A stretch of DNA of 64,000 bases, taken from NCBI GenBank assembly GCA_963555755.3, contig OY820905.2:160001-224000 (forward strand). Reading direction: 5' to 3'. Shown here in pieces: positions 6,012-64,000 of the stretch (within the stretch, counting starts at the first letter, position 1; the number at the start of each line of letters is the position of its first letter). The position numbers were made by a program, and so were the translations under genes. The notes under the pieces were generated by a model. It did not search any database. It had not been told where the DNA came from and saw only the letters and a list, made by a program, of their open reading frames with translations. The stretch is from Nitrospirales bacterium (GTDB taxonomy: Bacteria; Nitrospirota; Nitrospiria; Nitrospirales; UBA8639).

Positions 6012-6112
6012 CACAGGTGACAACGGCAAACTACTTGAGAGGGTAGGGCGCAAAGCCAAGAGACCTGAGTGTGGATGATAGCCATCCAAGGGTTCGTCTG
6101 GTTACCGAACTG
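6012..6112 (+). ncRNA. Cyclic di-GMP-I (GEMM) riboswitch
   Basis: GGCAAAC-stem-GAGA tetraloop-GGGCGCAAAGCC...GGTTACCGAA matches the class I aptamer core; 5' of a sigma28 gene. Confidence 0.88.
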
Positions 6113-14568: not shown

Positions 14569-16541
14569 GTAGAGTAGAGCACTGGTGCTCATCCTGGAGC
14601 TGCTCTCGAACGTTTCGGCGCACGCGCCTACTCCGGGCCAGAGCAGTCAGAAATAACCAGCGCTCCCTCATCAAACCGTGCATGCGGTTTTCTCGCACAC
14701 GGCTTTCCGATGTTCTTCAGGCCAAGGCATGCGCCGAGCGCCAGCCCGGTCCCACAGGAACCTTGTACAGCCCGTAACGCCCGTAAAGATCAGCATGCGG
14801 GAAGCGGCCTAGGCCGCTTCGTCGATCCTTCACCTTATGGCGTTTCATCAAGTGAGTTCGCAGCCGGGCTTCCGCATGGTTTCTGACCTTGTTCATCGCC
14901 AGACTTGAGTTACGATAGTGGAAATAGTTCGCCCACCCTTTCAGGCTGCGATTGACCGTTCCCACGATAGCACTCAAGGGAATGGCAGTCAGTTCCCGTT
15001 GTGTTAGTGCCGTCAGCCTCGCCTTGATTTTCTTCAGCGATGGCTCCGACGGACGAACATTCGGGTACGGTTTCCCAGAACGTCCCCCTCGACTCAGCTG
15101 AATCGTAAAACCCAGGAAGTCGAAGCTCGCTTGGGTGGCGTCCACGATAGTCGTCTTGGTCTCGTTGAGCGTGAGGCCCAATCGTGCCAGTACGGCTCGC
15201 ACCACCTTCAGCGGTTCCACGACATCTTTTCGGCACAGCACGACAAAGTCGTCTGCGTAGCGCACGAGGTGCGCTTGCAGCTTGTCTTTGAGGTGCCGCC
15301 GTTGCCATAGCCGATCCAACTGGTGTAGGTAGCAGTTGGCCAATAGCGGTGAGAGCACCCCGCCTTGCGGCGTGCCTTTGCTGTTGGCATTCCCGCCACC
15401 CACACCCCGCTTCACGCCGTTGTCGTCTTCACCAATGACCGGGGCTTTGAGCCACAGCTTGATGAGGTGCAAGATGCCACCGTCAACAATGCGCTCAGCG
15501 ACCATGGCCAGCAGCTTGGCATGCGGGATACTGTCGAAGTAGTTCGACAGGTCGGCGTCTATGACGTGGGTGTAGCCTGCCCAGAGCGTATGGGCAATGT
15601 CGTTCACCGCATCATGGGCCGATCGCTTGGGCCGGAATCCGTACGAATTCGCACAGAAGTCGGCTTCAAAGATCGGCTCGATGATGAGCTTGACTGCCAT
15701 TTGCGCCACTCGGTCTCGGATCGTCGGGATCCCTAGCGGACGCAGACTGCCGTCCGCTTTGCGTATCATGACGCGCCGCACCGGTTGGGCTCGGTAGGTC
15801 TTGGCTTTCAGATCACGGGCCAATTCCCGCAGAAACGTGTCTACCCCGATTCCACTCTCTATGGCCTTGAAGCTGATCCCATCACTACCGGGGCTGCCTC
15901 GATTGGCTCGGACAAGCCGCCAGGCATGATTGAGGATATCCTCCTGGCTGATCTTGTCGTAGAGTGCGTAAAAGCGATAGGCCGGTTCTTGCTTGGCCTT
16001 GGCATACAGCTTCCTCTGCAGCGTCCTGATCGTCTCCGGGGTGGTTAGCGCCATGGCAATCCCCTGATCCTCCGCTCTTCGGTTGCATGAACAAAGCAGG
16101 GTTCCTTCCCTCGACCGGGGTTGTGTTGTCCCTCGGCCTCAAGCGGTACTATGAACCCCTCCGACTCCCGTTCCGGGCCGCTGTGATTTCGTGGCCTTAT
16201 ACACATTGGTCGGTGTCCTCCCCACCCCCAAAACGGGTCTCCAGCACTGGGCTATACGTCTTCCAGAACATGCCGTCCTTGCTACCCCGGGAGTCGATGG
16301 GTGTCACTTCCGTTATTCCAGCACCCTTCCAGCGGCCTTCCCCTTCTGACCACAGGGTCGGCGTCTCCACTTTGTTTACGAGGCTACTCATAGGTTCACT
16401 TGCGTTACGGCCTGCTCTTTTGCTGTGTGGAAACTTACGACCCCGCGTTACCACGACGCCGCTTCCTCATGCTACCAAGGTGTACGGACAATTCCTTGGA
16501 CGGGACTTTAACCCGCTAGACATACTGCTGTTACTGCGAAC
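14569..16541 (-). mobile_element. Group II intron (1973 nt)
   Basis: 5' end GTTCG, domain V AAGCCGTGTGCGAGAAAACCGCATGCACGGTTT (~14673-14705), 3' end CTACTCTAC; removal restores an exact 20-bp repeat of the neighbouring sequence; EBS1 GGUCAG at 16346-16351. Confidence 0.92.
14717..16054 (-). CDS. ltrA: Group II intron reverse transcriptase/maturase, no En domain
   Basis: RPLGIPTIRDR, GTPQGGVLSPLLAN, RYADDF, thumb/X region GWANYF; 445 aa. Confidence 0.95.
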   Translation of the reverse strand: MALTTPETIRTLQRKLYAKAKQEPAYRFYALYDKISQEDILNHAWRLVRANRGSPGSDGISFKAIESGIGVDTFLRELARDLKAKTYRAQPVRRVMIRKADGSLRPLGIPTIRDRVAQMAVKLIIEPIFEADFCANSYGFRPKRSAHDAVNDIAHTLWAGYTHVIDADLSNYFDSIPHAKLLAMVAERIVDGGILHLIKLWLKAPVIGEDDNGVKRGVGGGNANSKGTPQGGVLSPLLANCYLHQLDRLWQRRHLKDKLQAHLVRYADDFVVLCRKDVVEPLKVVRAVLARLGLTLNETKTTIVDATQASFDFLGFTIQLSRGGRSGKPYPNVRPSEPSLKKIKARLTALTQRELTAIPLSAIVGTVNRSLKGWANYFHYRNSSLAMNKVRNHAEARLRTHLMKRHKVKDRRSGLGRFPHADLYGRYGLYKVPVGPGWRSAHALA

Positions 16542-16571
16542 GGTCAGGTCTTGTGTTGGGGGGTCAGGTCT

Positions 16572-18040
16572 CAATACTGTTCACTTAGATGAAAATCTGT
16601 TATACTTCGCCTCCACACGTAATCTGGGAGGAGGCAACATGGCAAGAAAGAAAGTCGGCTTGGGGGCGGGGGCTCGATTGGCGGATTATTTGAGCACGGG
16701 ATTACTGGCTCGTGCCTTTCCGGTGGCCATCATCAACGAAGAACTTGACGCACATCATTGTAACAGTGAACGTGTCCGCACCTTTCCCGCTTCTGCCGTG
16801 GTGTACTACACCATGGCGTTGAGCTTATACAGCGAGGCCGCGTACGAAGCGGTGTTTGCCGCTGTGGCCCAAGGGCTGGCATGGAAAGACCACAAACCCG
16901 TTGCTCCCGTGACCGTTGTCAAATCAGCCATCAGCAAAGCCCGCTCACGGCTGACGTGGAAGGCGCTGAAAGCCATTGGACAGCGCTGCTTGCGCCCGTT
17001 GGCTCGTCCAGAGCATGCCCACGCCTTTTTTGCAGGCTACCGACTCGTCGCGATAGATGGCTCCAACTTTGAGGTCCCGGATGAGGAAGCCAATGTGCAA
17101 GTCTTTGGGTACCCAGGGAGCCGAACCGGGCAGGCCGGCTACCCCCAAGCCCAGTGCGCCATTTTGACGGAATGTGCCAGTCACGCCATTTTGGATGCCG
17201 AACTAGGGGCCTATAAGCAGGCCGAATGGGAGGTGGCCGCGCCCTTGGTGCGTCGCCTCACGCCCGACATGCTCTGCATGGCCGATCGCGGCTTTGTCGG
17301 GTACGCCCATTGGCAGGCCGGCCTTCAGACCGGAGCGCAACTACTCTGGCGCATGCCGAAGAGCTTGATCCTTCCAGTTGACAAGCTGTTGGACGATGGC
17401 TCGTACCTGAGCCATCTGTATCCCAGTGAACGCGCCAGAAGAAAGCGAATTGATGGGATCGCCATCAGGGTGATTGAGTATGTCTTACCGCAGGGGCCCA
17501 ATAGCGAACCGCTGTACCGTCTCGTCACCACGCTGCTGGATGACCAAGGCGCACCCGCCCAGGACCTGGCTCAACTGTATCACGAGCGCTGGGAGGTGGA
17601 ATTGGTGTTTGATGAGCTGAAGACGCACCTGAGGCAACGTCGTCGCGTCCTGCGCAGTAAAACGCCAGAGTTGGTGCGTCAAGAGTTCTACGGATGGGTG
17701 ATGGCCCACTACGCCGTGCGCTGGTTGATGTATCAAGGGGCCACCCAGGCAGACATCCCTGACCGCACGGTATCTTTTACGGCCACGGTGCAGTTAGTGC
17801 GTCGAACCCTGCCCCAATCTGGGGCCCTTCCCCCCTGAGCGCCAAAAAACATGGTATCGGCTGCTGTTTGAGGCGACGGCGAAACTGTTGTGTGAATCCA
17901 GTCGTGGAAAAATCAAGCCGAGGATGGTGAAACGCCGAAACTCTCCATACGCACCGTACAAACGTCCGAGACCGCCCGTTGCGCAAATTGACTGGACACC
18001 ATCCATCAAACCACCGAAGATATCTAAGTGAACAGTATTG
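16572..18040 (+). mobile_element. IS4-family insertion sequence (1469 bp)
   Basis: Perfect 19-bp TIR CAATACTGTTCACTTAGAT; 10-bp TSD GGTCAGGTCT at 16562-16571 and 18041-18050. Confidence 0.95.
16639..17838 (+). CDS. IS4-family DDE transposase (probable -1 frameshift extension to 18031)
   Basis: GGAGGAGG RBS before ATG 16639; AIDGS, ADRGF, YHERWEVELVFDELK (YREK motif). Confidence 0.93.
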   Translation: MARKKVGLGAGARLADYLSTGLLARAFPVAIINEELDAHHCNSERVRTFPASAVVYYTMALSLYSEAAYEAVFAAVAQGLAWKDHKPVAPVTVVKSAISKARSRLTWKALKAIGQRCLRPLARPEHAHAFFAGYRLVAIDGSNFEVPDEEANVQVFGYPGSRTGQAGYPQAQCAILTECASHAILDAELGAYKQAEWEVAAPLVRRLTPDMLCMADRGFVGYAHWQAGLQTGAQLLWRMPKSLILPVDKLLDDGSYLSHLYPSERARRKRIDGIAIRVIEYVLPQGPNSEPLYRLVTTLLDDQGAPAQDLAQLYHERWEVELVFDELKTHLRQRRRVLRSKTPELVRQEFYGWVMAHYAVRWLMYQGATQADIPDRTVSFTATVQLVRRTLPQSGALPP

Positions 18041-18155
18041 GGTCAGGTCTTGCAATGCAACATCAAAACGACTTTGCGGGGTAGACATGAATATTGAGTT
18101 ATTAATTCAGGTGGAAAAGGAGTCATCCTGAAGCGGTCCCTTTTTTCCGTTGCCA

Positions 18156-18575
18156 TCATGAAGGAAGGTTCTTGGGACCGAACACCACTAGTTGGGGGAA
18201 ATACGTCTGGTATTGCTGCCTATCGCGGGTGAGAAGGGGAAGACCCTCCACGGAGGCATGGGCTCCAATATAAAAATCTGGCAGAGGTGACCGTTTGGCC
18301 CCCTTTCGTTTTCTGTATTGAAGAAACACTTTTCCAGCTAAAAACAAAGCTTCTTTGGGGATGGGTCGCATGGTCAAACCTCCCTCCATCAGGGCGTGTT
18401 CTAAATCTTCAATTCGGGCAAATCCTATAGAGATTTCCGAGTAAATAATGGGGTTAATGTACAAGTCATAAGAGGCCTCATGGGAGGTTAATTGTTTTTC
18501 CGACCACGTTCCCCATTGCGGATCATCGACAAATACATCCAGAAGAATATTGGAATCCACCAATAATCCGTTCAC
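18156..18575 (-). CDS. vapC: VapC/PIN-domain toxin
   Basis: LVDSNILLD, PDFYIGAHA, LLTRD. Confidence 0.9.
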   Translation of the reverse strand: MNGLLVDSNILLDVFVDDPQWGTWSEKQLTSHEASYDLYINPIIYSEISIGFARIEDLEHALMEGGLTMRPIPKEALFLAGKVFLQYRKRKGAKRSPLPDFYIGAHASVEGLPLLTRDRQQYQTYFPQLVVFGPKNLPS

Positions 18576-18796
18576 CGATTCCCCCGCGTTAATCGTAAAA
18601 TCTCATCGGTGGTCATTCGCACTTTTCCTATCCCTCGCAGGTTTCGAAATCGTGTAGTGGCTTTCTCTGTTTCCCCTTTTTTTACAATCACACGCCCCTT
18701 TTCTTCCACAAACTCCACTTCCGAGTGACTGGATAATCCAAGTTTCTTTCGGATATGGAGAGGAATGGTTACCTGTCCCTTGCTTGTTAACCGCAT
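18572..18796 (-). CDS. AbrB/MazE-type antitoxin
   Basis: MRLTSKGQVTIPLHIRKKLG; 4-nt overlap with the toxin. Confidence 0.92.
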   Translation of the reverse strand: MRLTSKGQVTIPLHIRKKLGLSSHSEVEFVEEKGRVIVKKGETEKATTRFRNLRGIGKVRMTTDEILRLTRGNR

Positions 18797-47455: not shown

Positions 47456-49183
47456 TTAGAAAAGAAAATAACGCTGGGCCATCGGCAAAATGGCCATGGG
47501 CTCACAGGTCAAATGTTGGCCGTCAGCCTTGACGACATAGGTTTCAGGATCTACTTCCATGTGGGGAAGTGCATCATTTAGTTTTAAATCACGTTTGCCA
47601 ATGTTTCGACAATTTTGAACGGCCACCACACGTTTTTGTAAACCCAAACTGGTGTGGATCTTCCGCTCGATCCCTGCTTGGGACAGAAAGGTTACGCTGG
47701 TGGTGAACGGGGCCCGTCCAAACGCGCCAAACATCGCGCGACTCAAAACCGGTTGAGGTGTAGGAATAGAGGCATTGGGATCGCCCATGGCCGCTTCAAC
47801 GATAAAGCCTCCCTTCATGATGAGGTCAGGCTTTACTCCAAAAAAAGCTGGGTTCCACAACACGAGGTCGGCTAATTTTCCGGCTTCCACTGATCCTACT
47901 TCATGCGCAATGCCATGGGTGATCGCCGGATTAATCGTGTATTTGGCAACGTATCGCTTTGCACGGAAATTATCATTGCTGTCTGGTGATAGCTGGATGC
48001 CTGATGGATTCAGATGCCCCCGTTGGACTTTCATCTTATGGGCGGTTTGCCAGGTTCGGGTAATCACTTCGCCAATTCGTCCCATGGCTTGCGAGTCTGA
48101 AGACATGATGCTGATCGCGCCCATGTCGTGAAGAATGTCCTCGGCGGCAATGGTTTCCCCACGAATGCGTGATTCGGCAAACGCAATGTCTTCCGGTACA
48201 CGCGGGCTTAAATGGTGACAGACCATCAACATATCCAGATGTTCGTCGATGGTATTGACGGTAAACGGCATGCTTGGGTTGGTTGAGGACGGCAAGACAT
48301 TCGACTCCCCACACACGCGAATGATATCCGGGGCATGTCCCCCTCCCGCACCCTCCGTGTGAAAGGTGTGAATGGTTCGTCCGCCAAACGCGCGAATCGT
48401 GTCCTCCACAAATCCTGCCTCATTTAAGGTGTCGGTATGAATGGCGACTTGCACATCATATTGATCAGCAACATCCAAGCAGGTTGAGATGGCTGCTGGT
48501 GTGGTGCCCCAATCTTCATGCAACTTCAGGCCAATCGCACCGGCTTCAACTTGTTCGACCAATGCTTCCGGAAGAGACGCATTGCCTTTTCCCATAAACC
48601 CAAGGTTGATAGGGAATCCATCAGCTGCTTCTAACATCCGGCCAATATTCCAAGCGCCTGGTGTACAAGTCGTGGCATTTGTTCCGGTAGCCGGGCCCGT
48701 TCCACCACCCAGCAAGGTGGTCATGCCTGAGGACAAGGCTTCGGGAACCAATTGCGGACAAATGAAATGCACGTGACTTTCCACACCGCCTGCCGTCACA
48801 ATTTTTCCTTCCCCGGCGATGACTTCAGTTCCGGGCCCGATCTCCATCCGTGGTGTGACACCATCCATCAAGTCCGGGTTCCCGGATTTCCCGATCCCCA
48901 CAATTCGCCCATCTCGAATGCCAATATCCGCTTTGACGATGCCCCAATAGTCGAGAATCACGGCATTCGTCACGACCACATCCAAGGAACCCTTGGCGCG
49001 TGTGGCGGTGGGGGATTGTCCCATCCCATCCCGAATCACCTTGCCTCCGCCGAACTTGGCCTCTTCACCTGGCGTAGTAAAATCTTGTTCGACTTCCACG
49101 ATGAGCTCGGTGTCCGCGAGGCGAATACGATCTCCAGTCGTCGGGCCATACAAGTCCACGTATTGACGGCGAGACAATTTCAT
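47456..49183 (-). CDS. ureC: Urease subunit alpha
   Basis: [35 protein letters not shown]. Confidence 0.98.
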
Positions 49184-58311: not shown

Positions 58312-60215
58312 CAGGGCTATTTCATATTAAAGTGTAACTTTATAGATAATAAGGAATAATCGATTTAGGCTGGCTTTTTCTTTTCGTTTACGGCATACTC
58401 TTTTGCATGCCAGACGAATCGCCAAGCGGACAGCCGGACATTGATCTGAGGCAAGTCGTGGTTCGCCCAATTGTCCGAGACGAAAAGGACGCCTTCAAGA
58501 CCCTTCTCGACAGACACCACTACCTCGGTCATGCCCCGCTGATTGGCCAATCGATACAATATCTCGCCTGTGTGCAGGATCGCTGGCTGGCCTTGCTGGT
58601 GTTTGCGGCGGCGGCCCTCAAATCGAGACCGCGAGACCACTGGATCGGCTGGCCCCCCTGTTTTCAATGGCAACGACTCCATTTACTGGCCAACAACACC
58701 TGGTTTCTCATGCTGCCGGGCTGTTCGCAAAAGAACCTCGCCTCGAAAGTCCTGTCGCTCTGCGCGAAACGGATCTCGGCCGATTGGCAACTGTACCACG
58801 GCTACCCCTTGCTCCTCTTAGAGACCTTCGTCGATCCTGCCCGCTTCACCGGGACCTGCTATCGGGCCGCCGGGTGGCACGAGCTCGGTCTGACACGAGG
58901 GTTTCGCAAGTCGAACACGTGTTATGTTCAGCATGAGAGACCGAAGCGCATCCTAGTCGTGCGGCTGCATCCCCAAGCCCGAGAGATCCTTGCACGCCCG
59001 ATGCTTGATCAGCCCTATCAGAAAGGAGAAGCGCCTCAGATGAGATTGAATACAAAACAGACGGACTCCCTCTTTACGTATGTGGTGCAGCTGACCGATC
59101 CCCGCCATTTGCAAGGGCAACGGCACACCCGACGCGCCCTCACGGCGATCATGTTCTGTGCCACCTTGTGCGGCGCGCGCGGCTATGAAGCGATCTCGGA
59201 CTGGGCCCAGCAGTTATCGCAGCCGATGCGCAAGCGGCTAGGCTGTACTCAGCGAGGGGGGCGCTACCTCGTCCCGAGCCGCAGCACTCTTTACCGCTTT
59301 ATCACGGCCGTCGACCCCTGTGAAGTCGATACCCTGCTCGGCCGGTGGCTGGACACCTTCGGCGGGGAGGATCAGGGCATTGCCATTGATGGGAAGACCA
59401 TGCGGGGGACGTCGAAGGTCCCAAGCGAACAGACCCACGTCCTCAGCGCCGTCACCCATCAAGCCGGGCGCCACCTCACCCAAAAAAAGTTCACTCCAAG
59501 ACCAATGAGATCCCCTGCGTGCGGCCCCTGTTAGATGCGCTCGAGATCGCAGGGAAGGTGATCACGGCGGATGCGCTCCTCACCCAGAAAGAGATTGCCG
59601 AGTACCTGGTGCACGAACGCGGCGCCGACTTCGTCTTCACCGTCAAGGGAAACCAGCCCACCTTGAAGCACGACATTGAGGCCTTAGCGTTGCGAGCACG
59701 CCGGTGCGATTATGCCACCACCGAGAAAGGCCATGGGCAGATCACGACCCGCAGGATCTGGTGCGATGACTCCCTGAATGCCTATGTCAACTTTCCTCAT
59801 GTCCAGCAAGTCTTCTGCATTGAGAGGGAAGTGACGCATCTCAAGCAGGGCCTCACGACCGTCGAAGCGGTCTGCGGTGTCACGAGTCAGTCCAAAGACA
59901 AGGCGGGGCCGAAGACCATCCTCTCGCAAAACCGAAAGCATTGGAGTGTGGAGAATAAGCAGCATTATGTGTTGGACGTCACCTTTGATGAAGACAGGAG
60001 TCAGATACGAAGTCTCAATGGCCCAATGGTCATGACCTGTCTGAGACGCTATGCCATCAGTCTCTTACGCCTGAAAGGCTACACCAATATCGCGCAGGCG
60101 TGTAGACTGCTCTGGGGCAAGCCCCATTTAGCCATCCGCATGGCCCTGCCCTGAAAAAGAGCGCACAAAAAACCTCATGGAATCCCTTGCTTATAAAAAG
60201 AATGAAATGGCCCTG
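58312..60215 (+). mobile_element. ISAs1-family insertion sequence (1904 bp)
   Basis: TIR CAGGGC(T/C)ATTTCAT; 9-bp TSD CTCGTTCCC at 58303-58311 and 60216-60224. Confidence 0.93.
58407..60154 (+). CDS. DUF4338-fused ISAs1 transposase, two frames joined at a -1 slip site
   Basis: ORF 58407-59534 (HHYLG, ETFVD, DPR..G.RH, AIDGKT) plus second frame (KTNEIP, TADALLTQ, VKGNQ, HWSVEN); A7G at 59482-59489. Confidence 0.88.
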
Positions 60216-60366: not shown

Positions 60367-60604
60367 AGGGCTGTTGAATAATTCACGTCAATAGCCAATA
60401 AACGCCTCAGATGAGCTCCACATCGTCAGTGGGAGGGAATGTTCAAAAAAGCATGCCCTGAGTCTTTCCGAAGGGTCTATCCAGTCCTGTCCTGAGCAGA
60501 GTCGAAGGAAAGGCCGCAGCCCTTTTGACGCGCGGAGCGTACTCATAGTACGTGAGCACGGCAAAAGGGCGAGAACGCCGCTGGCGGCTTTTTTCAACAT
60601 TCCC
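60367..60604. mobile_element. MITE family B copy (reverse) with an extra nested REP
   Basis: Homologous to 7041-7254 including the tail; insertion CCTGTCCTGAGCAGAGTCGAAGGA near 60486-60509. Confidence 0.8.
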
Positions 60605-60676
60605 TGAAAAGGTTGGTAGGAAGGTATTGCAGGTAGACCAGGTGGTATAATTTTATAATTGTCAGCGGATAAAAAC

Positions 60677-61339
60677 ATGAAAAATCGATTTCGTGTCATA
60701 GCGTCAGGAATTTTGTTTTCACTAGTATTCTGTCAATTATTAACTGGATGTCTTGGTTCTTCAGGAATCCGAACCATGATTCATGAAGATCCACAAATCC
60801 AAGTATATCTTGAATGGGTTCCGAAAGAATCGTTTCGTGCCTCGCACCCAAAATATTTTTCGCCAATCCTTATTAAACATATTTTAAGTGGAGTGATGGT
60901 TCAACCACCTCCTGGGATCATCGAAGGTCTCTTACGCGAGGACACCAAACCCTCTCCTATATTTTCCAACGATGATGTGGAATTCTTGGTTCCGCACTTG
61001 GTATCTGCTTTGTCGCAAGTGACCCCAGAGGAACAGGTGGTCTTTCAACGAACCTATTCCCAGGAATCCCAAACCACGAAAACGGCAGGAACAATTCATG
61101 TCAAAGAGGGACTCCTGTATTTGACTATTACGGATTTGGGACGGACGAAGAATAGTCCTACCGTAACCTTCTACAAAGGGAATCGAGATGTACCCGATTC
61201 GTCTGGGCTTAGAGATGTGCAAATCTCCTTTGCCCCAGAAACAGCGTGGCGGCAGGATATGGCACAGCATTCTGTGACAAAGGGACAGTCTTCCCTGAAT
61301 TTACTTGTACTGGACTATAAAGTGTTAGCAAGTCTTTAA
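60677..61339 (+). CDS. Lipoprotein, hypothetical
   Basis: Lipobox LTGC. Confidence 0.7.
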   Translation: MKNRFRVIASGILFSLVFCQLLTGCLGSSGIRTMIHEDPQIQVYLEWVPKESFRASHPKYFSPILIKHILSGVMVQPPPGIIEGLLREDTKPSPIFSNDDVEFLVPHLVSALSQVTPEEQVVFQRTYSQESQTTKTAGTIHVKEGLLYLTITDLGRTKNSPTVTFYKGNRDVPDSSGLRDVQISFAPETAWRQDMAQHSVTKGQSSLNLLVLDYKVLASL

Positions 61340-61727: not shown

Positions 61728-61948
61728 AAATGCGTTGGGAGCGGCGGAGCCGCAGCCCCGAATCGACTTTTCGGCGAGGGCTGTTTGAGTCCTTCGACAA
61801 GACTCAGGATAGACTCCGCGAGTTTCCTCGCCATCTTATTCGGGGCGGAGGCGGAGGAACCCGTAGGGCCGAACACGGGCAGAAATGGTTTTGGGCACTT
61901 TTGCCGAAACAAATGGACCTCGTCGCGCGGGGGCGACACCCCGCATTT
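61728..61948. repeat. GC-rich structured intergenic element with nested REP
   Basis: AAATGCG...CGCATTT ends, internal hairpins (GGGGCGACACCCC), CCTTCGACAAGACTCAGG at 61791; single copy here. Confidence 0.5.
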
Positions 61949-62158
61949 AAAGAAAAACGTTCTGTTTTAATCGATTAGTCGTAACGAAATTGGGTCAGAA
62001 GTAGGGTCAAGCCCTTTTTACTAATATACTACTTTGTGGACGATTCTAACATTCCCTCCGAAAAATGAGACGCGACCTTTCATTTTTTCTATACACCAAA
62101 TTGGATTGCTCCATACACCTCATTGTGCTACTGTCAGTGCTACGAAAGGAGGGTGAGC

Positions 62159-62359
62159 ATGGCACGAACTAATATCGAATTGGAAGACAAACTTGTCAAA
62201 GAAGGGATGAAGGTTTTTCAGTGCAAAACCAAAAAGGAATTAGTGCATCTGGCGCTTCAAGAGTTGTTGAAGAAAGAAAAGCGAAAAGAAATTCTGCAAC
62301 TTCGAGGCAAAGTGAAGTGGGAAGGTAATCTTGATATCATACGAAGGTCACGCCTGTGA
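62159..62359 (+). CDS. vapB: VapB-type antitoxin (RHH, DUF2191-like)
   Basis: RTNIELEDKL..TKKELVHLAL..LRGKVKWEGNL. Confidence 0.9.
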   Translation: MARTNIELEDKLVKEGMKVFQCKTKKELVHLALQELLKKEKRKEILQLRGKVKWEGNLDIIRRSRL

Positions 62360-62763
62360 TTGTTGTTGATACGACCGTCTGGATAGATTTTTTTAATGGA
62401 GTGGGGACTCCGGAAGACCACCATCTTCAAAAACTTATTTCGGAAGACCGGTCAATTGCGCTGACCGATCTCATTTTCTGTGAAATCCTTCAGGGAATAC
62501 CAAACGACAAAGAATACGAGCGCACACGAAATCTTCTTTTGCAGTATCCCATCTTTCTCATGGATGGTCTTCCTATCTTTGAACACGCTGCGATGATCTA
62601 TCGCGCCTGTCGAAAGCGCGGGCTCACCATACGGAAAACCATCGATTGTTTGATAGCATCCGTTTGTATTGCCAATGATCTAGCCTTGTTTCAAAAAGAT
62701 TCGGACTTTGATTACATTGCCCAGGTCACACCATTAAAAGTCCATCACCCCGTTCCAAGGTAA
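62356..62763 (+). CDS. vapC: VapC/PIN-domain toxin
   Basis: MIVVDTTVWIDFF, EILQG, IDCLIA, DSDF. Confidence 0.92.
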   Translation: MIVVDTTVWIDFFNGVGTPEDHHLQKLISEDRSIALTDLIFCEILQGIPNDKEYERTRNLLLQYPIFLMDGLPIFEHAAMIYRACRKRGLTIRKTIDCLIASVCIANDLALFQKDSDFDYIAQVTPLKVHHPVPR

Positions 62764-63189
62764 TTCAGAAAAGGGGTCAATCTTAAGAAAAGGGGTCAAT
62801 CCTATTTAATAATGTAATAGGGGGTTGTGGTCCATTCTCACATTCCTACCTTTCCTGCTATTCCGAACCCTAAAACAGGTGGGTAGAGTACTTGAAATAA
62901 TTCACAGATGTATCAAGAACTCTGATCCCTTGATCCTGGGAAGGTAGCCATCTGGCTTTCTGAGGAAATTTCTCTCTTAGGACACGACTGAGTCTTTAAG
63001 GCGGTCCAGACGGGCTTGGTCTATATAGACCCAGGTGGTTTTTTCTTGTGTGACGTTGACAGAGCCAGTTGGGGGTCTGGTCTTGCACTGCCCCATTGAA
63101 CGGGTTTGTTGAGTGATGCCCACCCTACAACATTGAAGTCAGCGATATTGCCTTATTTTTTTACAATTTTTTTTAATGGAGACTTAAAC

Positions 63190-63957
63190 ATGTTCAGAGC
63201 GTATCCACTATTTATTTTTTGTTCTTTGTTCGTTTTGATGGTGGGGTGCACAACTGCTCCTCCGACTCATATTCCTGTGCCTTCCCAAGTGCCTCCGGCT
63301 CTTTCCTCTTCTGAAGCGATCATTGTTGCCTCACAAAATGAGATTCTTGCCGATGTGGAGAAATCCAATGTTACAATGTACACCGGTGGAGGACTAATTC
63401 CGGCCCTTATTGACGTTGCGATCGAAAGTTCTCGTTCCGACACCACTGAAGAAATGATTGTTCCGATTCGGGAAGCCCTTGCGGATTACGATGTTGGTGC
63501 CCGCATGAAACAGGCTCTTGCTCCTGGGTTACAGACAATTTCCTGGCTACACGTAAAACATGTCGATACGCATTATGATAAACATCCAGATGTAGCGGCC
63601 CATCTTTTGCCACAAGGTTCAACTGATGCGTTGATTCTCATCAATACCTCCTATAAATTGACTTCGGACTTTTCTGCCCTTTCGACAAATGCCGAAATTA
63701 ACGTCTACCCCCGCTCCAATGAATTAAAAAGGTTAACTCCTCCTCAGGAAGGTATGGAGGATTCCCTTGTGCCTTTTTATAAGAATACGGTGTCACGGTG
63801 GTATCCCTTGCCCTCAAATCCTAGTGACCAGGACCTCGCCGTGGGGAAATGGACTCGCGATCAGGGGAAGTTGATTAAGGAAGCCATGGATCAGAATATT
63901 GAGGGGATCTGCAAGGAGCTTCTTGCTGGACTTCGCAACTCCTATACGGAAAGATGA
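63190..63957 (+). CDS. Lipoprotein, hypothetical
   Basis: GGAG RBS, lipobox MVGC, GGGLIPALID segment. Confidence 0.75.
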   Translation: MFRAYPLFIFCSLFVLMVGCTTAPPTHIPVPSQVPPALSSSEAIIVASQNEILADVEKSNVTMYTGGGLIPALIDVAIESSRSDTTEEMIVPIREALADYDVGARMKQALAPGLQTISWLHVKHVDTHYDKHPDVAAHLLPQGSTDALILINTSYKLTSDFSALSTNAEINVYPRSNELKRLTPPQEGMEDSLVPFYKNTVSRWYPLPSNPSDQDLAVGKWTRDQGKLIKEAMDQNIEGICKELLAGLRNSYTER

Positions 63958-64000
63958 ATTTTGTCGGGAAGCTGGTGGGGGTCCTGCCTATCAATCTAAA

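Follow-up and report, generated by a model that had tools for sequence, protein, structure and literature searches.

The window analysed here comprises 64,000 nucleotides, positions 160001-224000 of contig C1, in a near-complete genome of 4.6 Mb (G000). Near its right end, a vapBC toxin-antitoxin pair and the beginning of a lipoprotein operon are set among short repeats headed by GGGTCA or a similar hexamer; further repeats of this kind hold insertions close to another toxin-antitoxin pair (Table 1). The first-pass annotation had read the genes at the right end as cassettes bounded by co-oriented sites and captured by a possible non-integron system. The composite repeats that it described on both sides of vapBC are real. 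They consist of GGGTCAA, a spacer of 23 or 25 nt and a 22-mer (62004-62055 and 62793-62846), and the two 22-mers agree at 19 of 22 positions, while a partner of such similarity within 1.5 kb was found for 38 of 3000 random genomic 22-mers. The local duplication of GGGTCA at both sites (61992/62004 and 62774/62793) is equally real; the repeated unit, called a stutter below, is made of a leader, GGGTCA and a variable stretch of TIR. Of the two GGGGGTC motifs said to bracket the first lipoprotein gene, both exist, but only the one at 63071 is a TIR, while the one at 63977 encodes V-G-V within the lipoprotein ORF that follows. The bare motif GGGGTCA is hardly enriched, with 810 occurrences against a Markov expectation of 674 (1.2-fold).

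Table 1. Features at the vapBC locus and at the insertion sites upstream of it (window positions; a dot marks a feature without strand)
Position	Strand	Feature	Details
14569..16541	-	Group II intron with unusual 5' ends	At TGACC^CC of a stuttered TIR copy
16572..18039	+	IS4-family element, 1468 bp	PF01609 and PF13006; inside one TIR
18156..18796	-	MazE-type antitoxin and PIN toxin pair	Beside, not between, repeats
61986..62025	+	Decayed solo TIR with 12-nt stutter (leader and GGGTCA twice)	14/22 to the 62793 TIR
62034..62055	+	22-mer of the left composite repeat, a strongly decayed TIR of a second family (GGGTCAGTTCTCACATTCCTAC type)	15-16/26 to intact TIRs
62159..62359	+	vapB antitoxin	PF09957, E 2.9e-17
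62356..62763	+	vapC PIN toxin	PF01850, E 1.1e-13
62768..62814	+	Leader junction, 19-nt stutter and TIR-A	Homology to the vapBC paralog stops 6 nt before GGGTCA
62825..62850	+	TIR-B, decayed	19-20/26 to intact TIRs
62881..62929	.	Mini hairpin: two short TIR-like sequences facing inwards	
62978..63066	-	3'-terminal part of a conserved, putatively NFACT-like gene, duplicated	
63067..63095	+	Solo TIR (GGGTCTGGTCTTGCA type) with its leader junction	Paralog homology stops 6 nt before GGGTCT
63190..63957	+	Predicted lipoprotein, first gene of a three-gene operon	No Pfam match
63954..64000	+	Second lipoprotein gene, start	GGGGGTC at 63977 is coding

The TIR at 61986..62025 has its family in common with a site at C1 2068011, and the block shared by both genomic copies of vapBC begins at the 22-mer behind it, with homology from 62033. 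On the other side of vapBC, TIR-A, TIR-B and the mini hairpin form a composite module with six further copies, full or partial, in the genome. It is followed by the 3' end of a conserved gene, putatively NFACT-like by its sequence. With the first lipoprotein as a query, homologues were found in two of 60 family genomes (G033 and G070), in neither case with TIRs close by. The next true TIR site lies outside the window at C1 226542, 3.5 kb on, after the lipoprotein operon. Inside the operon there is an IS1595-like element (L022:3002-4021), which we consider a recent, strain-specific insertion because it is missing from the contigs of three other runs. The third ORF of the operon runs into a seven-copy 13-nt TIR stutter (L022:5031-5131), which suggests that it was cut off at a leader junction.

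An Rfam scan gave no match at the repeat sites; elsewhere in the window, it detected a c-di-GMP-I riboswitch and a 5' ureB small RNA (6015-6109 and 48738-49036). Contigs of an RNA run (X8) span parts of the region and are uninformative on expression. To the left of the locus lie a dispersed repeat of ~215 bp (61732-61946; 111 loci, no strand bias), a second dispersed family (60368-60605; ~316 loci, also present in relatives and not enriched near toxin genes) and a multi-copy transposase in two frames (58407-60154), in which an N-terminal DruA domain (PF14236) is fused to DDE_Tnp_1_assoc.

TIRtron ends in the genome and at the locus

GGGTCA-headed repeats form many families in this genome, and several of these flank, as inverted pairs, genes of Y1-HUH transposases with a Bac_DnaA_C tail. 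Such elements are known as TIRtrons, with the TIR consensus GGGGWSAS (Di Nocera, 2013, PMC3733652). Their enzyme, TIRYT, corresponds to TnpAY1 subclass 2.1.2 (Quentin, 2018, PMC6006769), and probably to RAYT Group 1 (Bertels, 2017, PMC5581495); subclass 2.1 is reported from about 15% of surveyed strains (PMC6006769). We found six TIR-paired Y1+HTH genes (C1 490075, 761652, 1147606, 2166750, 2173414, and 2923675), three of which are nearly identical yet stand at unrelated flanks, and a further Y1-HTH gene at C1 115762 with a single clear TIR end. Both PF01797 and PF08299 were detected in five of six scanned candidate enzymes. H60, H62, and Y119 are invariant in the candidates, and their HUH and Y motifs are those of subclass 2.1.2. 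A profile search of the PDB with the enzyme returned DnaA domain IV only, with no match to TnpAREP. One intact TIRtron (C1 2922734-2923728, L016), whose enzyme has a DnaA-domain-IV-like tail, is located ~6 kb from oriC/dnaA. Among homologous loci from many phyla, 57 of 79 have a TIR pair.

The repeats around vapBC match stray or solo, partly decayed TIRs of TIRtrons, that is, of elements with a Y1-HUH transposase and a DnaA-like HTH. Their agreement with the terminal motif GGGG[AT][CG]A[CG] is loose: GGGGTCAA at 62773 and 62792 and GGGGTCTG at 63072 fit at seven of eight positions, and GGGGTCAA is the commonest terminal form in homologous elements (60/114 ends). The enzyme-linked TIR nearest to TIR-A is that of the gene at C1 115762 (19/22), and the TIR-B family precedes truncated Y1 genes at C1 1886328, 1019793, and 4384588. 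For the TIR family at 63073, no enzyme gene was found in the genome, nor was an intact enzyme with paired TIRs exactly matching the sites here. The locus is not a whole TIRtron, as it has no inverted TIR pair around a TIRYT gene; it is a stack of co-oriented TIR ends around vapBC, without an enzyme. The first-pass annotation had placed the recombinase, possibly RAYT-like, outside the window, and the sites indeed match TIR families of Y1-HUH genes elsewhere in the genome.

The repeats could also be integron cassettes (CALIN) or chance matches. The genome does encode an integron integrase (C1 318997), and vapBC is typical integron cassette cargo. But this integrase, the sole match over the cut-off, lies 95 kb beyond the window, so that there is no adjacent IntI, and a pattern test found the attC core pair RYYYAAC...GTTRRRY after none of three genes, in line with the non-integron reading of the first-pass annotation. 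The match of the repeats to TIR families speaks against both integrons and chance. This explanation is largely refuted and, in our opinion, very improbable. In the region of the integrase (C1 318997-332660), the true integrase gene is followed by two further integrase fragments downstream.

Stutters, junctions and insertions at TIR ends

Genome-wide, 120 adjacent GGGTCA pairs have at least four identical upstream bases, whereas nine control hexamers yielded 0-4 such pairs apiece. All but one of the 59 informative perfect stutter units (58) are compatible with a leader 5 or 6 nt long (in the exact cases, 5 nt eleven times and 6 nt seven times). In ten paired elements inspected (three TIRtrons, four MITEs, and three other MITEs), near-identical elements at unrelated flanks have the same five leader bases while base -6 varies; therefore, the element ends at about -5 and the leader moves with it. 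No short target duplication was seen in these ten elements. Stutters occur at 16 of the 57 TIR-paired homologous loci, compared to 27 of 11400 random positions (0.24%). In other genomes, a leader of 5-6 nt fits only four of nine perfect units, the remaining ones requiring 8-14 nt. The repeated units may be much longer than a TIR: one TIRtron end carries a unit of 434 bp, and a tandem copy of ~3.4-4.3 kb (C1 2476820-2469028) begins at a leader and has a PIN gene in each copy, although the middles of the copies differ.

An explanation that retains TIR remnants and requires no new enzyme cuts is that the stutters and junctions are passive, resulting from slippage at purine-rich tips, TIR-TIR recombination, and IS-driven deletions. 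It agrees with the A/G-rich leaders, the many other mobile elements of the island and the decayed state of the sites here. Slippage, however, does not predict an outer boundary that stays fixed while the inner one varies, leaders that differ by locus, nested ladders, or units of 434 bp and of kilobases starting at an identical offset, and the near absence of stutters at control hexamers is also at odds with it. We consider a passive origin unlikely.

If gain or loss happens at the sites, as the first-pass annotation had supposed, its breakpoints should fall on them, and this is what we observed: paralog homology ends there, and a relative has an empty site. We started from 181 outermost TIR sites, having dropped IS-internal matches and the right-hand duplications of IS4. 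For 37 of them, there is a paralog with homology ending nearby, and in 15 of the 37 it ends exactly at -5/-6, compared to three of 107 control hexamer sites. Both junctions at the locus, 62767/62768 and 63066/63067, are among the 15. The second copy of vapBC (C1 1430223-1429486) is 95.8% identical over window positions 62033-62767; the copies have their left TIR remnants in common and diverge at -6 of the right site. The block 62858-63066 is 97.6% identical to C1 246278-246484, 23 kb on, where the copy stands behind a TIR-A homologue and an IS200 and includes the 3' end of the conserved gene; a few bases of possible microhomology are found at the 63066 junction. The intact NFACT-like gene closes the island at C1 246396. 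In the relative G004, this gene adjoins the orthologue of window positions 60677-61339, and therefore ~25 kb has accreted at the island.

In close-strain synteny, none of the relatives carries the vapBC block. A clean empty-site continuation was found at none of 28 junctions, so joining seems to involve a single end at each event. Among 41 loci of homologous elements, no long repeats were present at both ends; four repeats were found, none of them at both tips. In this genome, in turn, C1 4098342-4108415 (L019:3343-13416) contains a 2025-bp direct repeat of 100% identity around a MITE-cargo-MITE unit; both junctions coincide with leaders, and each truncates one gene. The unit comprises a PepSY-like gene, a P450-like fragment, a transposase and a toxin-antitoxin pair of the Gp49/RelE type, and the repeat looks like a giant target duplication.

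TIRs also receive other mobile elements. The first-pass annotation had seen the same motif-plus-duplication signature at 16554-18060, beside the second toxin-antitoxin pair. This turned out to be the 11-bp target duplication GGGTCAGGTCT (16561-16571 and 18040-18050) of the IS4 element, and the toxin-antitoxin pair lies outside it. GGGTCAGGTCT-like TIR targets hold 20 of 21 near-identical IS4 copies (judged by eye, at most two mismatches). Relatives of this IS4 at E<=1e-80 were absent from 150 genomes of the phylum, and plasmid matches were at most 46% identical. The lineage of the group II intron comprises two related groups, in which TGACC precedes all 17 5' ends and all 17 copies are inserted at TGACC^CC of TIRs. 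For related introns elsewhere, we collected 81 loci; the 5' end could be aligned at 33 of them, and YGWCC closes 21 of the 31 distinct exons; this count alone is no proof of TIR targeting, as related introns share EBS1.

Orientation and origin of the island

In G000, with oriC placed at dnaA (C1 2.917 Mb), GGGTCA reads in the fork direction at 77 of 96 solo TIRs, the motif strand being the lagging-strand template. With the origin at the skew minimum and looser seeds, the count is 80 of 105, and clustering by 20 kb gives 37 clusters with the fork versus eight against it, with six ties. The controls are lower (50-60% for background hexamers and 58/104 for a control repeat), and the bias is present in all four arrangements of flanking genes. 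The bias did not recur in 15 other genomes: with local GC skew standing in for fork direction, a proxy of 87% accuracy in G000, 29 of the 50 solo sites follow the fork, against a background of 53%; these sites are older, include some chance matches and had visibly paired ones excluded beforehand. Our data show co-orientation with replication polarity in this genome only. Stutters at paired ends have no fork bias (17/33 versus 13/33).

A rival reading is a dedicated non-integron cassette system, with a leader-TIR-cargo unit leaving as a single-stranded circle between co-oriented nicks, re-entering at another TIR nick and so building arrays. At every island junction checked, cargo is followed by leader and TIR, 21 of the 22 TIR-like matches listed for the island have the same orientation, and vapBC is present twice with identical upstream TIR remnants. 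In addition, 12 of 81 toxin genes lie within 500 bp of a TIR, ~4-fold above the 3.5% at random (81 of 85 matches were used, after removal of three PIN proteins that were long or doubtful and of one match on contig 2). But toxin genes are as enriched near the unrelated repeat of 61732-61946 (18/81 versus 3.3% at random), and co-oriented TIRs bracket only two of the 81. The right ends of the two vapBC copies do not coincide, and therefore there is no fixed unit; neighbouring TIR loci are mostly inverted (27, versus 17 co-oriented). No vapBC circle or deletion joint was seen in the contigs of four runs, and although contigs drop rare variants, strain variation was detectable in these runs, three of which lack the IS1595-like element. 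The vapB homologue of G002 and the lipoprotein homologues of G033 and G070 are likewise without TIR stacks. We consider such cassettes quite improbable, and the locus does not support an ordered cassette system. The G002 homologue (L159, G002:C107) stands beside a tRNA, fused to a higB remnant; a mini-element nearby has GGGGTCGGGAGTC-type ends and shows the same kind of stutter.

The feature is real and belongs to a known element class with new mechanistic footprints. We think it likely that the sites are solo ends of TIRtrons and of miniature elements derived from them, which have piled up in an accretion island where vapBC is a passenger between scars. The nick made by TIRYT likely lies 5-6 nt outside GGGTCA, and the enzyme likely rejoins the end to newly copied or foreign DNA. 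In this model, the HTH would bind the TIR and the HUH domain would nick the GGGTCA-bearing strand, keeping the 5' end on the tyrosine; a host polymerase would then extend the free 3'-OH across the TIR. The new 3'-OH would attack the tyrosine-held end, yielding a tandem copy of leader, TIR and zero to several thousand downstream bases; given the unbiased paired-end stutters, this step is probably not fork-bound. Sometimes the held end would be joined to an unrelated 3'-OH, which could produce one-ended junctions, deletions, and long flanking duplications. As new ends are mostly fork-directed in this genome, neighbours would become co-oriented and resemble cassettes. IS4 and group II introns would land in the TIRs afterwards. 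We infer all chemical steps of this TIRYT model from sequence.

A bolder version, which we put forward tentatively and think doubtful as a whole, is that TIRtron ends act as fork-oriented one-ended copying origins. The Y1-HUH enzyme would nick at the 5-nt leader, copy downstream genes, including toxin-antitoxin modules, up to several kb, and dock the copy at another end or a nascent 3'-OH. Integron-free, co-oriented accretion islands with kb-long flanking duplications might be built in this way and serve as landing pads for IS4 and an intron lineage.

Comparison with known systems

The elements of this genome share with described TIRtrons the GGGGWSAS-like termini, the Y1 core with NH[YF]H and Y[IV]HLNP and the C-terminal Bac_DnaA_C (PMC3733652; PMC6006769), and their TIRs are likewise dispersed as single, dimeric or grouped repeats (PMC3733652). 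The vapBC locus differs: its ends are all solo, co-oriented and decayed, and no enzyme gene accompanies them. The TIRtron literature, in the text searched, is silent on a cut site, on leaders and stutters, on copying at the kb scale, on strand polarity and on IS4 or introns that use TIRs as targets, though its supplements and figures may bear on these; our literature searches found the term TIRYT in two works only, and the texts searched give no mechanism. New here are the controlled breakpoint test, kb-scale copying with a toxin-antitoxin passenger, the giant flanking duplication, the polarity in this genome, the IS4 targeting of TIRs and the negative cassette test. From this genome come a predicted cut site, located 5-6 nt outside GGGTCA, a leader that moves with the element and products from 5 nt to kilobases, so short oligonucleotides allow a direct test of the enzyme chemistry. 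Should the enzyme drive the kb-scale copying, genes would be duplicated and islands would grow by a route overlooked so far, and the resulting islands would mimic cassette arrays and may mislead annotation.

Among related systems, the TnpAREP model for BIME amplification involves a nick, extension of the 3'-OH and its attack on Tyr-5'P (Ton-Hoang, 2012, PMC3333891, Fig. 7B), and predicts an identical tandem product. Unlike REPs, GGGTCA sites have no GTAG-footed hairpin and fold weakly (-2.9 kcal/mol at the left site), and unlike BIMEs, TIR units vary in length, are not one BIME, and whole TIRtrons move. With the IS200/IS605 family (IS608, ISDra2), TIRtrons share Y1-HUH catalysis without target duplication, and the active strand of that family is the lagging-strand template, as is the polarity in G000 (PMC6006769; PMC3333891). 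TIRtrons have symmetric inverted ends and an HTH domain, whereas IS200/IS605 ends are asymmetric hairpins, and the junctions here are one-sided rather than clean insertions. The one-ended rolling-circle transduction of IS91 and ISCR, with a fixed start, a variable end, and adjacent genes co-copied, is like the TIRtron products; however, it depends on another enzyme class, and capture here is downstream of the TIR and mostly local. Finally, the IS4 copies, nearly all in one dispersed repeat, resemble the REP-targeting ISRm22 of the same family (Tobes and Pareja, 2006, PMC1525189), but the IS4 described here targets the TIRtron end, with an 11-bp duplication.
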